Shown piece after piece: positions 1 to 39,848 of a stretch of 39,875 bases of DNA. The translations under genes and the position numbers were made by a program. Positions within the stretch are counted from its first letter, which is position 1. The number at the start of each line of letters is the position of its first letter. The notes under the pieces were generated by a model. That model did no database searches. It was not told where the DNA came from and saw only the letters and a list, made by a program, of their open reading frames with translations. The DNA comes from a virus, in the UHGV virus genome UHGV-0200725; one strand, 5' to 3'.

Positions 1-309
1 TTGGGTAGGATGAAAATGGATATAACACCCTTACTTCATGCACTTTGTGCTGTGGCTGCGCAGCTACTGATTGGTCTTTTTACCGGGAACTGGGCTTACG
101 GAGCGATAGCCGGTTGTACGTTCTTCATTGCGCGTGAACACACCCAGGCAGAATATCGCTGGATTGAAATGTTCGGACATGGCAAGCGTATGAATATGCC
201 GTGGTGGGGCGGTTTTGATCCGCGCGTGTGGGATTTGGCAAGCCTTATGGATTTTTCTGTGCCAGTGGTGGCGTGTCTGCTGGTCTGGCTGTTGATCCGT
301 TCAACATAA
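1..309 (+). CDS. 3' part of a gene for a small hydrophobic (probable inner-membrane) protein; likely host flank or boundary gene, 5' end outside window
   Basis: Frame open from position 1 to TAA at 307-309; translation has two hydrophobic helices; no family recognised. Confidence 0.3.
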   Translation: MGRMKMDITPLLHALCAVAAQLLIGLFTGNWAYGAIAGCTFFIAREHTQAEYRWIEMFGHGKRMNMPWWGGFDPRVWDLASLMDFSVPVVACLLVWLLIRST

Positions 310-498
310 AAGCCGCAGCAACTTGTCATGGCAGAATACTGCGGCTGGCTGGTGAACTTCCGATAGTGCGAGTATTGAATGATTTCCAGCCGTTACCGAT
401 TTTACTATGTTTTCAGTAGAATGCTTAGACAAAACTGAGGCGCACAAAGCTTTGCACTGGATTGCAAGACTTTGTGCTATTCGATAGTTTAAGGTCGC

Positions 499-1692
499 TC
501 ACTCTACCTTTTCATCAAGCCAGTCCGCCCACCATTGCATCATTTCTCTGCGCTTATCGAGATACTGAGCATGGTTGTAAATTCCACGTACAGATCCGCC
601 GTTGGCATGTGCCAGTTGCACTTCAATGGCGTCGGCAGGCCATTCGTGCTCGTTCATAATCGTGCTGAATTCATGCCTGAATCCGTGACCGCTTTCCAGA
701 CCTTCATAGCCGATTTGTTTGATCACAAGTAGCACCGCGTTCTCGCAGATTGGCTTCTTCTTATCGTTGCGCCCGGAAAAAACAAACTCTGATACTGGTT
801 TAGTGATTGAGCTTAGTGTAGTGAGAAGTTCAACCACCTGGTCTGACATCGGGACAACATGAATTTTGCGTCCCTTCATCACACTGGCGTCGATGGTGAT
901 AATCCTGTTTTCAAAATCGACGTTCTTCCATAGCATGGAACGAAGCTCTTTTGTTCTTAGGGCTGTGTAGCGTAAAACTTTGGTCGCAATGAGCGATACG
1001 ATACTTCCTGAAAATGTTGCAAGTGCTTTGTTGAATGCCGGGATCTGGTCGGCAGGTAAAAATGGGAAGTTCTTCTTGCGGTATCCCTTCATGGCGTCAG
1101 CAAGGTCAGGTGCCGGGTTATATTTAGCCCTACCAGTGACAATAGCGTAACGGAAAACCTCGCCGCATCTTCTGCGGGCTTTGTTGGCTCGCTCCATTGC
1201 ACCGCGATCTTCAAATCTACGGATTACTTCCAGCAGTTGCATCGGCTCAATATCCTGAATTTCAAGGCCGCCGATGATAGGTAAAATGTCGTCATCAAAC
1301 ATTTTTGCAAGTTCAGTCGCATACCCTACTGACCAGACTTGCTTCTTGTGCTCGTACCATTCCTTGTAAATCGCACTAAAGGAATTGTTGTTAGACGAAG
1401 CCTTTTTCGCTTTTACCGGATCGATGCCAACCGAGATGTCTTTCCTCGCGGTCCATGCTTTATCTCTTGCCTCCTGCAAAGTCATAAGCGGATATTTTCC
1501 GACGGTCAGGATTTTCTCCTTACCGTCAATCTTGTAGCGAAGCTGCCATACCTTTTTCCCGGATACAGGAACATAAAGGTACAGGCCATTACCATCGAGA
1601 AGGCGGTATGGTTTTTCTTTCGGCTTTGCTGCTTCAATCTGCTTAACGGTGAGCATGGGTAAAAATCCGGTGGGTAAAATTATTTTATCCAC
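499..1692 (-). CDS. int: Tyrosine site-specific integrase (P4/CP4-57-like family)
   Basis: 397-aa ORF; N-terminal arm-binding-like region (KQIEAAKPKEKPYRLLDGNGLYLYV) and C-terminal catalytic region with conserved R...H..R..Y spacing (HGFRHEF...RGIYNHAQY); track start at 1692 is GTG, Met13 at 1656 is an alternative start. Confidence 0.9.
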   Translation of the reverse strand: MDKIILPTGFLPMLTVKQIEAAKPKEKPYRLLDGNGLYLYVPVSGKKVWQLRYKIDGKEKILTVGKYPLMTLQEARDKAWTARKDISVGIDPVKAKKASSNNNSFSAIYKEWYEHKKQVWSVGYATELAKMFDDDILPIIGGLEIQDIEPMQLLEVIRRFEDRGAMERANKARRRCGEVFRYAIVTGRAKYNPAPDLADAMKGYRKKNFPFLPADQIPAFNKALATFSGSIVSLIATKVLRYTALRTKELRSMLWKNVDFENRIITIDASVMKGRKIHVVPMSDQVVELLTTLSSITKPVSEFVFSGRNDKKKPICENAVLLVIKQIGYEGLESGHGFRHEFSTIMNEHEWPADAIEVQLAHANGGSVRGIYNHAQYLDKRREMMQWWADWLDEKVE

Positions 1693-1911
1693 TTTTTACC
1701 CGTCATGGAGTGCGGCTGTCAACGATCTGACGCGAACCATTACGAACTGTGAATCTACGGAAGGCTTGATATTCAGGGGATTTTGCGGACTGGTACGGAT
1801 GGGAGCGAACTGATAAATGGTGTCCCCTGCAGACATCTACTTGAAGCGGCAGGGGATTGATTGGAATGGTGTTTTTTAGGTGTGAGAAATATTTTACCCG
1901 CTATTTTACCC
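1657..1911. promoter_or_regulatory. Five copies of a 9-mer (A/T)TTTTACCC / GGGTAAAA(A/T) bracketing the int start and alpA 3' end; candidate Int arm-type or AlpA binding sites
   Basis: GGGTAAAAA 1657-1665, GGGTAAAAT 1672-1680, TTTTTACCC 1693-1701, ATTTTACCC 1891-1899 and 1903-1911, read directly. Confidence 0.3.
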
Positions 1912-2106
1912 ATTGGCGCGGCTTAAGAGCTTATTTTTGAATTCACAATGGTCACGATATAACCATCTTGCTCGCCCGTGGATAACTTTGGCTTTAGGCA
2001 GGTCGCCGGACTTAATCCGGTCATAGATGAAGGTTTTACCGAAGCCAGTATCGGCCATGATGAATTTCAAATCAACCAGTGAATCAGGTTGTAGTTCGTG
2101 TTGCAT
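1906..2106 (-). CDS. AlpA-family phage transcriptional regulator / excisionase
   Basis: 66-aa ORF directly upstream of int on same strand; small helix-turn-helix protein of AlpA/Xis type (LPKAKVIHGRARWLYRDHCEF). Confidence 0.7.
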   Translation of the reverse strand: MQHELQPDSLVDLKFIMADTGFGKTFIYDRIKSGDLPKAKVIHGRARWLYRDHCEFKNKLLSRANG

Positions 2107-2150
2107 GAGTGCTATCTCCGAATAGGGAATCGAACCTGCAAATCAGGCAA

Positions 2151-2171
2151 TAAAAAACCGCCATCAGGCGG
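2151..2171 (-). terminator. Rho-independent terminator ending the leftward early operon
   Basis: Minus strand reads CCGCC-TGAT-GGCGG followed by TTTTTT; hairpin 2158-2171, A-run on plus strand 2152-2157. Confidence 0.6.
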
Positions 2172-2331
2172 CTTGATGTTCTTTCAGTTCTTCAATTCGA
2201 ATATTGGTTACGTCTGCATGTGCTATCTGCGCCCACAGCATCCAGTGGTCATAGCAGTCATTGATGTTCTCTGCTTCGATAACTCTGTTGAATGGTTCTC
2301 CATTCCATTCACCTGTAACTCGGAAGTGCAT
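2164..2331 (-). CDS. Hypothetical small protein (55 aa), not in the supplied track
   Basis: ATG 2331-2329 preceded by GGAG; translation MHFRVTGEWNGEPFNRVIEAENINDCYDHWMLWAQIAHADVTNIRIEELKEHQAA; stop lies inside the terminator hairpin; more protein-like than track ORF 2223..2411. Confidence 0.4.
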   Translation of the reverse strand: MHFRVTGEWNGEPFNRVIEAENINDCYDHWMLWAQIAHADVTNIRIEELKEHQAA

Positions 2332-2403
2332 TTATCATCTCCATAAAACAAAACTCGCAGTAGCGAGTTCAGATAAAAGAAATCCCCGCGAGTGCGAGGA
2401 TTG

Positions 2404-2688
2404 TTATTCATTGCCGATATTTACCTTTATCGCGAACACCTTTACCGGTTTATCACCGAAGTGCGGATGCGTGATTATCTTGATTTCATATCCGTCATAC
2501 GGAACATCAATTCTTCGGCTGGAATCGTCGCGCTTCGGATATCCCTTTGTGATAATCAGGCGGTCATACTCCCGGAACATAATTCGCTTATTCCAGTAGT
2601 CATTACACAAGCGATACTCTTCCGTTTTCTCTCCGCGAATCATGGCATCGAAGTATTCACCTTTGACGGCAAGTTGCAGGTTAGCCAC
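2404..2688 (-). CDS. Hypothetical protein, possible ASCH/DUF3850-like fold
   Basis: 94-aa ORF overlapping the upstream gene by 8 nt; N-terminal GEYFDAMIRGEKTEEYR resembles ASCH-type proteins (from memory). Confidence 0.5.
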   Translation of the reverse strand: MANLQLAVKGEYFDAMIRGEKTEEYRLCNDYWNKRIMFREYDRLIITKGYPKRDDSSRRIDVPYDGYEIKIITHPHFGDKPVKVFAIKVNIGNE

Positions 2689-2983
2689 GGTTAACCTCCT
2701 GCGGAGTAGCTTTTACAAGCACTGGTGTAAATCCATCTTCATTAAGGTTATGAATATAGACTTCTGTTCTCCTGCGCTCTTCAACGTTTAATATTGTTTC
2801 TGGATCATAAACCCATACTTTCATTCGACTATTCCATGAAGAAATCGCTTCAGATCTAGTTCGTTTTTCTGGTCCTTGGGCACCACATTTGCATGACACA
2901 TAGCGCATTTTCCCTCTGATACTGAATGAGTATCCGATGTTAAGCACAGTGGAACCACAGAATGGGCAGCGATATAGATTCAT
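2681..2983 (-). CDS. Lar-family restriction-alleviation protein (zinc-ribbon)
   Basis: 100-aa ORF with CPFCG...CKCG pairs typical of the Lar family; 4-nt overlap with upstream gene. Confidence 0.6.
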   Translation of the reverse strand: MNLYRCPFCGSTVLNIGYSFSIRGKMRYVSCKCGAQGPEKRTRSEAISSWNSRMKVWVYDPETILNVEERRRTEVYIHNLNEDGFTPVLVKATPQEVNRG

Positions 2984-3819
2984 AAATCACCCACCTTAGG
3001 CGCAGCTGAGACAGCAACATTCCAGAACTCAGAAAACATATTGTATGCACCAGATAGATTGGAAGTGGCATACCCTCCAAGCTCACTTCTAATCTGAACG
3101 GCTCTCATCATTTCCGGTGTTAACTCCTTCGGCACCATAACCCAACCATCCGGAGTTACCGGATAGTTGCCAGCCAGTCTACGCAAAACAGCCTTAATCG
3201 CATCAATACGGTCATCATCGCAACTTTCCAGCGTATCTATGCGGTCGAGCATGATGATTGCGTTATCAATATCAGGATTGCCGGTCCACTCATTACCGCG
3301 ATTGGATTCGACAGCCAGGTTGCCGTATACTGTTTGATTCTCGGCTTTACCCAGTCTGTCGTCGCTGCATGAATGCCCTTCCAGCCAGGCCAGTGCTTGT
3401 CGCATGAAATACGCAATATGCTTGCCGTGGTAATCGTCTTCATCGATGTGAAAAGCGATACTGCGGATGTATTCAATTGCGTTTTCAATGGCCTCTAACG
3501 CTATCGGCGCTGGCGGAGTGGTATATAGTTTTCGACATTTGTATATCCAACCGGCATGGTCAGGCGTGTCTGTAAAGCGCAAATCGTCTTCGTAGCAATC
3601 ACGACTTCGTTCTTTCCATTCCGTCCACGGAACACCGCTATTCCAGGTGGGGCGAGTGCAGGACTGATACAGAACAGGCTCTGCTTCCAGCGATGCCAGT
3701 GCAATTCGTGCCAGTTCCCTAAGATTTTCGCTATATGGTGAAGTATTATCACGATGGATTATGTGATTAGCTGTATCTATGAGAACTTGCTTTTGTTCTT
3801 CTCTGTTCATAGTGGTCAT
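2980..3819 (-). CDS. Hypothetical protein (279 aa), acidic, unknown function
   Basis: Long ORF in the coupled early-left chain; no family recognised. Confidence 0.7.
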   Translation of the reverse strand: MTTMNREEQKQVLIDTANHIIHRDNTSPYSENLRELARIALASLEAEPVLYQSCTRPTWNSGVPWTEWKERSRDCYEDDLRFTDTPDHAGWIYKCRKLYTTPPAPIALEAIENAIEYIRSIAFHIDEDDYHGKHIAYFMRQALAWLEGHSCSDDRLGKAENQTVYGNLAVESNRGNEWTGNPDIDNAIIMLDRIDTLESCDDDRIDAIKAVLRRLAGNYPVTPDGWVMVPKELTPEMMRAVQIRSELGGYATSNLSGAYNMFSEFWNVAVSAAPKVGDL

Positions 3820-39668: not shown

Positions 39669-39848
39669 TTTTGTCATCCTTTAGGTAAAGAAGGTGAACG
39701 GTATTACACTGTAGATTATTCTGGTGTTACTGGCTTGCTTGTTCAGGTAGCCAGAGAGTCAGACGACAGAATAACAGCACTGGAAGAAGAAAACGCAGAA
39801 TTAAGACAAATGTTATCTGCAATTGAGGCGGCGCTTGCGTCTAAATAA
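39669..39848 (+). pseudogene. 3' remnant of a tail-fibre/tailspike gene: C-terminal part of an intramolecular-chaperone (peptidase S74-like) domain, no start codon
   Basis: 59 in-frame codons after a TGA with no initiator; translation ...GERYYTVDYSGVTGLLVQVARESDDRITALEEENAELRQMLSAIEAALASK resembles chaperone-domain C-termini as I recall them. Confidence 0.35.

Follow-up and report, generated by a model that had tools for sequence, protein, structure and literature searches.

Integration modules of argW-targeting phages

In phages Sf6, HK620 and Kapi1, and in KplE1, attP is located between int and xis (PMC8787464). The module is already known, as follows: it consists of the excisionase TorI, attP and the integrase IntS, and its target is the tRNA gene argW. 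In KplE1, five TorI sites have been mapped, and these are GTTCG, GATCG and GTCCG motifs (PMC2951348). The P' sites of KplE1 contain TAAA, and P'1 overlaps the -10 box of the intS promoter, whose start was mapped in K-12 by primer extension (PMC2951348). TorI represses intS, a sign opposite to that of activation of a cognate integrase gene, and int of phage P4 is subject to negative autoregulation (PMC2951348).

A complete module in unintegrated form

The DNA analyzed here, called the window, is a stretch of 39,875 nucleotides from a virus. Judged from its sequence, the segment 1-2106 is almost certainly the known integration/excision module of KplE1/HK620/Sf6 type, in its free, unintegrated form, of a P22-like (HK620/Sf6-like) temperate phage. 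It is the well-studied cassette of an argW-targeting phage and is therefore ordinary; no new biology is implied.

Read along the minus strand, the segment is ordered terminator, torI (1906-2106), attP (1657-1911), intS (499-1656), terminator (Table 1). torI and intS have the same orientation with attP in between, which is the gene order of the KplE1/HK620/Sf6 module. On the same strand, a sequence matching the K-12 attR P arm (283/290 identical) leads into a 16-nt core and from there into a sequence matching the K-12 attL P' arm (176/180 identical). By this alignment, an intact attP sits between torI and intS, and 1-2106 includes no prophage/host junction. The initial annotation had taken the segment for the left boundary of a prophage; it is not one, as the ends of the window are contiguous in relatives and the intact attP has its core at 1817-1832. 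The window consists of phage DNA only, and we infer its physical state (virion, circular or plasmid-like) from the intact attP.

Table 1. Features of the integration/excision module and its flanks, in order along the minus strand
Feature	Position	Strand	Basis
Rho-independent terminator-like hairpin AAGCCGCC-TGAT-GGCGGTTT, then T-rich run	2149..2174	-	Scan; conserved in HK620
torI (hkaC in HK620, gene 18 in Sf6): 66-aa recombination directionality factor (RDF)/excisionase, also inhibits response regulator TorR	1906..2106	-	Identity
P arm: two tandem direct 9-mers GGGTAAAAT (1903-1911 and 1891-1899), predicted arm-type	1891..1911	-	Identical in K-12 attR and HK620
attP core CTGCAGGGGACACCAT, crossover region	1817..1832	-	Exact match to argW 3' end
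Putative TorI block I1-I2 (GTTCG ... GTCCG)	1787..1814	-	28 nt identical to K-12 2464409-2464436
Putative TorI block I3-I5 (CAGTTC, GGTTC and CAGATC cores), adjoins -35 box	1724..1751	-	Maps to K-12 2464472-2464499
PintS promoter inside attP: -35 TTGACA 1717-1722, -10 TAAAAA 1693-1698, starts 1687 and 1686	1686..1722	-	Identical to K-12 attL promoter region
P' arm: four predicted arm-type 9-mers	1657..1701	-	Repeat scan, conserved geometry
P'1 GGGTAAAAA, overlaps -10 box	1693-1701	-	9-mer scan
P'2 GGATAAAAT	1682-1690	-	One mismatch
Inverted P' 9-mer copies	1672-1680 and 1657-1665	-	Copy 1657-1665 abuts ATG
intS: P4-type tyrosine integrase, 385 aa, ATG start	499..1656	-	Identity to K-12 IntS, Pfam domains
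Probable intS terminator, hairpin and U-rich tail, downstream of intS stop	430..477	-	RNA fold, terminator scan, HK620 record
Small uncharacterized membrane protein with three helices (phrog_1443), phage cargo	16..309	+	Start at ATG 10 also possible

It is very unlikely that the module is a dead relic, that is, that it belongs to a prophage or plasmid-like element no longer using this attP or IntS. KplE1 itself is a defective prophage, and some near-identical records are extrachromosomal contigs of ~39 kb (H9-H11). Against this, both genes are intact, and their products are all but identical to proteins of demonstrated activity (PMC2951348); no mutations are seen in the core, the promoter, the TorI sites or the arm repeats; and the remainder of the 39,875-nt window is a complete P22-like genome.

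IntS and its start codon

IntS differs from K-12 IntS at one residue (384/385 identical) and from HK620 Int at 6 residues (379/385). Its Pfam domains, all above cutoffs, are Arm-DNA-bind_3 (PF13356, 2e-25), Phage_int_M/central SAM-like (PF22022, 6e-28) and Phage_integrase (PF00589, 2e-38). This is a P4-type domain set; identity to P4 Int is 35% over 402 columns (E=1e-77), and the comparison with lambda Int gave no meaningful similarity, the best segment having E=0.023 over 48 aa. The earlier view of the integrase as P4-like rather than lambda-like is thereby upheld.

The intS reading frame is open on the minus strand over 499..1692, up to a GTG at 1692 that the initial annotation chose as the start. 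The real start is the ATG at 1656, as both the relatives and the mapped K-12 transcription start speak against the GTG. The start MLT(V/I)KQ is conserved, with no in-frame start upstream of it in 17 of 26 relatives, and in K-12 the GTG codon lies 3-5 nt upstream of the mapped intS transcription start (PMC2951348).

On the 3' side of intS, RNA folding of 405-500 (minus strand) gives a hairpin of the 15-bp class with z=-3.1, a fold that none of the shuffles equals. A terminator-like scan match is found at 457..440, and the HK620 record has a terminator annotated at the homologous place.

TorI and the upstream terminator

The small regulator gene noted next to int is present and encodes a 66-aa HTH protein. 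All 66 residues are identical to those of K-12 TorI, HK620 HkaC and PDB 1Z4H ("Tor inhibition protein"), and the protein matches phrog_66, excisionase (E=3e-8). Its placement in the AlpA family did not hold up: the match to Pfam Phage_AlpA (PF05930, CP4-57 regulator) scores 12.7 bits (E=0.12), below the cutoff of 21. HTH_17 is likewise missed (16.9 bits, cutoff 27), and BLASTP detects no similarity to P4 Vis. The protein is TorI, a related small winged-helix/excisionase-like protein for which AlpA membership is not demonstrated.

A terminator had been noted between the module and the genes upstream, and it is confirmed: the hairpin and T-run upstream of torI, which end an ea-type operon before that gene. 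A 16-nt copy of the argW T-arm lies at 2126-2141, just upstream of torI, and is a small oddity.

Arm-type sites and the intS promoter

The window contains exactly five copies of TTTTACCC, all in 1657-1911, where shuffling leads one to expect 0.81 in the window; none of 100 shuffles reached 5. The five clustered 9-mers of the initial annotation are real, and a sixth, degenerate copy with one mismatch is P'2. We predict, partly by inference, that all six are IntS arm-type sites, two in the P arm and four in the P' arm. The P-arm copy nearest torI shares sequence with the end of that gene, namely its TAA stop and its last Gly codon.

The positions of the repeats are conserved in related elements. 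The P' geometry, with direct copies at -45 and -34 and inverted copies at -22 and -7, is kept in relatives with 58-100% IntS identity, and six relatives have GGGCATA at the same P' positions. Across 26 relatives from ~15 genera, the geometry of the repeats is kept, as are the ATG and the position of the -35 box, and the motif co-varies with integrase divergence. For the P arm, every copy found by scanning IMG/VR with TorI was 100% identical. These offer no diversity for a test, and therefore Klebsiella phage Chronis was used instead; its DNA is 77% identical and conserves the pair as GGGTAAAGT/GAGTAAAAT.

The mapped K-12 start coordinates, 2464536/7, convert to "TA". The -35, the -10, the start-site sequence and the five TorI pentamers, including all three cores of the I3-I5 block, are kept as in the mapped K-12 region, a conservation of sequence only. 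Matches to the IHF consensus WATCAANNNNTTR show no enrichment (39 vs 45 expected); a one-mismatch candidate lies at 1850-1862 in the P arm, and no IHF site is claimed.

The initial annotation left the 9-mers as either arm-type or AlpA sites. Of the two, the arm-type assignment is the plausible one, given the conserved positions, the co-variation with the integrase and the placement of P'1 on the -10 box. It is highly improbable that the TTTTACCC 9-mers are instead sites of the small HTH protein (TorI, or "AlpA"), even though two copies border torI at its 3' end and four fall within the intS promoter, a known target of repression by TorI (PMC2951348). The published TorI motifs, GTTCG/GATCG/GTCCG, map elsewhere, to 1724-1751 and 1787-1814, and the P' sites described for IntS, with TAAA and with P'1 on the -10 box, fit GGGTAAAAA at 1693-1701. 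In diverged relatives the 9-mer and the GTTCG motifs change independently, each keeping its position, and the arm repeats of P4 Int show the same layout. The 9-mers are best read as predicted IntS arm-type sites.

The att core and the prophage boundary

The 16-mer CTGCAGGGGACACCAT, located between torI and intS, matches the 3' end of argW tRNA-Arg(CCU) exactly, and the KplE1 core is the same 16 nt (PMC2951348). Alignments to integrated prophages break exactly at 1832. Among the relatives, 24 of 26 adjoin tRNA-Arg(CCT), in line with the earlier suggestion of a tRNA-targeting integrase family.

ARAGORN found no tRNA in the whole 39,875-nt window, which agrees with none having been seen by eye in 310-499. 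When 1-3000 was scanned against Rfam at E<=1, the only matches were STnc130 and Leu_leader, two chance matches below threshold that both fall on terminator hairpins. The att core had been sought near 310-499, a stretch with no tRNA or Rfam match; it is at 1817-1832. The prophage boundary lies elsewhere than the initial annotation placed it, an outcome which that annotation had itself named as refuting it, as integrated relatives break at 1832, and these relatives continue as phage DNA through 1-499.

A 69-nt non-coding stretch (337-405) is shared with the ykgJ-ecpE intergenic region, a second small oddity. We considered it as a second att site, in the manner of HK633, and rejected it as such for this phage: the ykgJ-ecpE copy is almost never interrupted, and other copies are in prophages at unrelated loci.

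Phage cargo downstream of intS

The hydrophobic ORF ending at 309 is present. It belongs to phrog_1443 (E=1e-57), with no match in Pfam or NCBIfam, and its MD... start is conserved in 36 homologues. The AF2 model has a pLDDT of 93 and three helices, and Foldseek searches of PDB and BFVD with this model gave no informative fold match. The family is widespread in phages and prophages (Enterobacteriaceae, Aeromonas, Comamonas); its members are three-helix membrane proteins of ~95 aa with an invariant polar motif, AREHTQAEYRWI ... MPWWGGFD.

The ORF had been taken for a host gene flanking the prophage. It is a phage gene: phrog_1443 is a phage family, whose homologues lie downstream of tail-fibre genes in ~69 phage records, and in strain PEC41 the ORF is inside the argW-integrated prophage, with tail fibre, hydrophobic ORF, intS, tRNA-Arg and yfdC following one another. 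In the window it is placed between a tailspike/tail-fibre remnant and intS, as cargo unrelated to the module. This is the classical moron slot between tail genes and int, and therefore a role in lysogenic conversion or superinfection exclusion is conceivable. The ORF is the only uncharacterized component, and that it provides a new function of this kind is a speculative proposal, with perhaps a modest chance of being right.

The least probable reading, that an integrated prophage has its left end in 1-2106, with a lambda-like att core in 310-499 and the hydrophobic ORF as the adjacent host gene, draws on the adjacency of attP to the 3' side of int in lambda and P22, on the HK633 GenBank record, which labels the homologous stretch downstream of int "attP", and on the 93% identity of 337-405 to the K-12 ykgJ/ecpE intergenic sequence, but it is contradicted by the intact attP with its argW core between torI and intS, by the break of integrated relatives at 1832 rather than in 310-499, by the phrog_1443 family beside tail-fibre genes and inside an argW prophage, by the joining of the window ends in relatives, by a ykgJ-ecpE site that, of the 5245 genomes having it, 4951 carry without interruption, and by the same 69-nt stretch being found close to prophage ends at prfC and bio, which are unrelated sites.

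Proposed mechanism and use for annotation

For the unintegrated argW module, the following steps are carried over from the published KplE1 work by way of near-identical sequence. IntS, a P4-type heterobivalent tyrosine recombinase, would bind the arm-type GGGTAAAAW 9-mers, two in the P arm and four in the P' arm, through its N-terminal domain, and its catalytic domain would recombine the 16-bp core with its identical counterpart at the 3' end of argW in the host. Integration would part the two genes to opposite prophage ends, intS to attL and torI to attR. TorI, on its five GTTCG-type sites, would steer the reaction towards excision and would repress intS via I4 and I5, which adjoin the -35 box. 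Since the P' arm contains the intS promoter, IntS would repress its own gene at P'1, over the -10 box.

The finding is of use for the correct annotation of argW-targeting phages, namely HK620, Sf6, CUS-3, Kapi1, KplE1 and several Stx phages. In these phages attP is between the excisionase and integrase genes, and therefore the prophage boundary adjoins the 5' end of int, not the 3' end. When a lambda-like layout is assumed, the boundary is off by ~1.4 kb and phage cargo is labelled as host DNA. The HK633 GenBank record appears to share this mistake, with "attP" annotated downstream of int.

Comparison with known systems

The closest system is KplE1 (CPS-53) of E. coli K-12, with which the module shares IntS (384/385), TorI (66/66), the 16-nt core and arms of 98% identity, with PintS, the five TorI sites and the arm-type repeats among the shared features. 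The difference is one of state: here attP is joined, torI and intS are adjacent, and the module belongs to a complete P22-like phage, whereas in K-12 attL and attR are split around a 10-kb defective prophage. HK620 and Sf6 (Lederbergvirus) have the same gene order (int, attP, hkaC/gene 18) and the same attP, with module DNA that is 96-97% identical, and in the HK620 record the core and the repeats of attP are marked at homologous positions. Sf6 differs in having oac between the tailspike gene and int, where the window has a tail-fibre fragment and the phrog_1443 membrane ORF.

Satellite phage P4 is more distant. Its attP is laid out like that of the module: the far arm carries two arm repeats in tandem, the core corresponds to a tRNA gene's 3' end, a further tandem pair is joined by an inverted copy directly next to the int ATG, and the int promoter is contained in attP. 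Unlike the module, P4 has the arm motif GGGGGCAT, another core and target tRNA, and an RDF, Vis, that has no detectable TorI similarity and is not adjacent to attP. Lambda shares the general plan of a heterobivalent tyrosine integrase with a small winged-helix RDF, and arm-type and core-type sites. In lambda, however, attP is downstream of int, and xis is transcribed together with int, whereas here attP stands between the RDF gene and int, and the latter appears to have its own autoregulated promoter.

An Intact attP between torI and intS

The homologous region carries the annotations intS and torI in the E. coli genomes of RefSeq and in phage records, and the HK620 annotation places an attP core and attP repeats between the two genes. 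In the window, the corresponding 16-mer, CTGCAGGGGACACCAT, is the 3′ end of argW, encoding tRNA-Arg(CCU), and is identical to the published core of KplE1, the defective K-12 prophage at argW (PMC2951348). On the minus strand, the sequence upstream of the core matches the prophage side of K-12 attR, i.e., torI and the P arm, at 283 of 290 positions; downstream, 176 of 180 positions match the prophage side of K-12 attL, i.e., the P′ arm and the intS start. Since the attR side, core, and attL side are joined in one strand, the window contains an intact attP between torI and intS.

The initial annotation had taken 1–2106 for the left boundary of the prophage. That reading is untenable given the intact attP: alignments to integrated prophages end exactly at 1832, with a tRNA-Arg annotated beneath the match. 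Further, the whole window is a P22-like genome whose two ends are contiguous in relatives; thus, position 1 is an arbitrary cut point and not a host junction. In Sf6, HK620, KplE1, and Kapi1, int and xis are separated by attP, an arrangement that carries the genes to opposite prophage ends (PMC8787464). The gene order in strain PEC41 is tail fibre, hydrophobic ORF, intS, tRNA-Arg, and yfdC. The module is an already known, textbook case.

The raw observations of the initial annotation are real, namely the ORFs, the terminator, five clustered 9-mers, the absence of a tRNA, and the hydrophobic ORF. ARAGORN found no tRNA in the entire window, and Rfam gave no credible match over 1–3000. The suggested tRNA target is supported by the core, and tRNA-Arg(CCT) adjoins 24 of 26 relatives. 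The hairpin and T-run upstream of torI do separate the module from the upstream genes, and would uncouple torI from the ea-type operon.

Features of the integration module and its flanks
Feature	Position	Strand	Remarks
Terminator hairpin and T-run	2174–2149	−	upstream of torI
argW T-arm copy, TTGCAGGTTCGATTCC, 16 nt	2126–2141	−	between terminator and torI ATG (2106)
torI, 66 codons	2106–1906	−
46-codon ORF	1773–1913	−	spans att core and P arm; homologous to HK620 hkaB and Sf6 gene 17
P arm tandem, GGGTAAAAT	1903–1911, 1891–1899	−	first overlaps last codon and stop codon of torI
Spacer, torI to long ORF		−	213 nt (249 nt to ATG 1656)
att core, CTGCAGGGGACACCAT	1817–1832
TorI site blocks	1787–1814, 1724–1751		via K-12 coordinates
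P′ arm direct copies	1693–1701 (GGGTAAAAA), 1682–1690 (GGATAAAAT)	−
P′ arm inverted copies	1672–1680, 1657–1665	read on −	1657–1665 abuts ATG
Long ORF (intS)	GTG 1692 to stop 499	−	397 codons as opened
intS terminator	about 477–430	−	strong hairpin, U-rich tail; probable terminator downstream of intS stop
Region 310–499			3′ hairpin of hydrophobic ORF, 69-nt stretch, probable intS terminator
69-nt stretch	337–405		non-coding
Hydrophobic ORF	16–309	+	97–99 codons

The 46-codon ORF over attP, an annotated gene in several phage records, is probably spurious.

IntS and TorI

The integrase has the P4-type architecture (Arm-DNA-bind_3, Phage_int_M, and Phage_integrase domains). P4 Int aligns along its length with 35% identity (E = 1e-77) and λ Int shows no significant similarity, in agreement with the P4-type assignment made earlier. 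Read from ATG 1656, IntS differs at 1 of 385 residues from K-12 IntS and at six from HK620 Int.

The GTG start proposed initially does not hold. GTG 1692–1690 sits between the −10 box (1698–1693) and the transcription starts, which were mapped in K-12 (PMC2951348) and convert to window positions 1687 and 1686. Being downstream of the −10 box but before the mapped starts, the GTG is absent from the transcript of PintS, the intS promoter. Moreover, in all 26 relatives the protein begins MLT(V/I)KQ from the homologous ATG, upstream of which 17 have no in-frame start codon. The intS start is ATG 1656, giving a 385 aa product that matches the K-12 and HK620 annotations.

The small protein is identical at 66 of 66 residues to K-12 TorI and to HkaC of HK620, and the protein whose structure was solved as 1Z4H, “Tor inhibition protein”, is also identical. 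It had been assigned to the AlpA family, but the Pfam AlpA match is sub-threshold (12.7 bits vs. a cutoff of 21), and BLASTP found no similarity to Vis, the excisionase of satellite phage P4. The protein is therefore the recombination directionality factor (RDF) TorI, and not a demonstrable AlpA-family member.

The 9-mer Repeats

The 39,875-nt window has five copies of the 9-mer TTTTACCC, all of them within 1657–1911; shuffled sequences average 0.81 copies and never contain five. A sixth copy, GGATAAAAT, has one mismatch. The initial annotation had left open whether these were arm-type or AlpA sites. The IntS arm-type P′ sites share TAAA, with P′1 overlapping the −10 box TAAAAA, and the five TorI sites (I1–I5) are GTTCG, GATCG, or GTCCG motifs in two blocks (PMC2951348). 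The copy at 1693–1701 fits P′1 as published, and the TorI motifs map to other blocks; this assigns the 9-mers, at the level of sequence, to IntS as predicted arm-type sites rather than TorI sites.

The steps of the proposed mechanism were demonstrated in published work on KplE1 and are extended to the window through near-identity. IntS, bound to the arm-type sites and core, would recombine attP with the argW 3′ end. The intS promoter, located inside the P′ arm, would be repressed by IntS at P′1 and by TorI at I4 and I5. TorI on its five sites would set the direction to excision.

Flanking Sequences

The hydrophobic ORF had been taken for a flanking gene. It matches phrog_1443 (unknown function; E = 1e-57), a phage family that in many lambdoid and P22-like phages directly follows the tail-fibre genes, and in PEC41 it lies beside intS. 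It is thus phage cargo in a moron slot and not a host gene. The ORF has no Pfam or NCBIfam family, and its homologues, from Enterobacteriaceae, Aeromonas, and Comamonas, are all named “hypothetical”. The 37-member family alignment shows a conserved MD start, an invariant polar motif, AREHTQAEYRWI...R.NMPWWGGFD, and conserved residues D4, H10, D81, and C89. Members are predicted to be three-helix membrane proteins of roughly 95 aa (AlphaFold AF2 model, three helices, pLDDT 93); the model has no informative structural neighbour in the PDB or BFVD.

At the other window end, the last ~150 nt (39694–39848) code for no more of a tail-fibre-type protein than its C-terminal tail, ending in ITALEEENAELRQMLSAIEAALASK, and a GC-rich terminator follows. 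The tail-fibre end and the phrog_1443 ORF look like a mosaic fragment from a lambdoid siphovirus in a P22-like podovirus.

The 69-nt stretch folds only modestly, into a hairpin with z about −2. In K-12, a sequence with 93% identity to it occupies the space between ykgJ and ecpE (NC_000913.3, about 304242–304310), and 5305 of the 5426 complete E. coli genomes have the stretch. GenBank labels the homologous stretch of HK633 attP. This candidate was rejected, as interruptions of the chromosomal site are very rare and other copies lie near lambdoid prophage ends at unrelated loci (prfC, bio/att-λ); on an IntS/TorI phage the label looks like a mis-annotation.

In argW, TTGCAGGTTCGATTCC is directly left of the core; in the window it is 294 nt away, beyond torI and the P arm. 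Across K-12, HK620, and 75 of 80 IMG/VR torI loci the copy is conserved; within it is a TorI-type pentamer, GTTCG. In the HK620 annotation, a “phage integration” promoter dependent on cII covers the copy. Possible explanations are a relic of the tRNA gene or a promoter/operator element.

Conservation and Comparison with P4

The 26 relatives represent about 15 genera, with IntS identities of 58–100%. All of them share a layout of two direct repeats (around −45 and −34), one or two inverted repeats (around −22 and −7), and a −35 element, TTGAC, around −65. In Klebsiella phage Chronis, at 77% DNA identity, the two P-arm copies are retained and overlap the RDF stop codon.

In L021, an IntS-like element of Xenorhabdus hominickii, the attL P′ arm has an insertion of about eight tandem copies of CCCTTAAAT; the array separates the argW core from the RDF-type repeats.

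In the six most diverged relatives, the repeat motif is GGGCATA at unchanged positions, and other repeats replace the GTTCG motifs. At the argW-integrated loci L016, L024–L027, and L031, whose integrases are 58–72% identical to IntS, GGGTAAA upstream of int (locus positions about 2440–2500) has become GGGCATA without change of position, and short GTAAAC, GTTACC, and GAACC replace the GTTCG repeats. At these loci, arm-site and RDF-site sequences clearly co-vary with their proteins.

The relatives, Chronis, and P4 lend comparative support to the earlier suggestion that the repeats are functional. The annotated attP of P4 follows the same plan as the window, but with GGGGGCAT repeats, to which the GGGCATA of the six loci is close.
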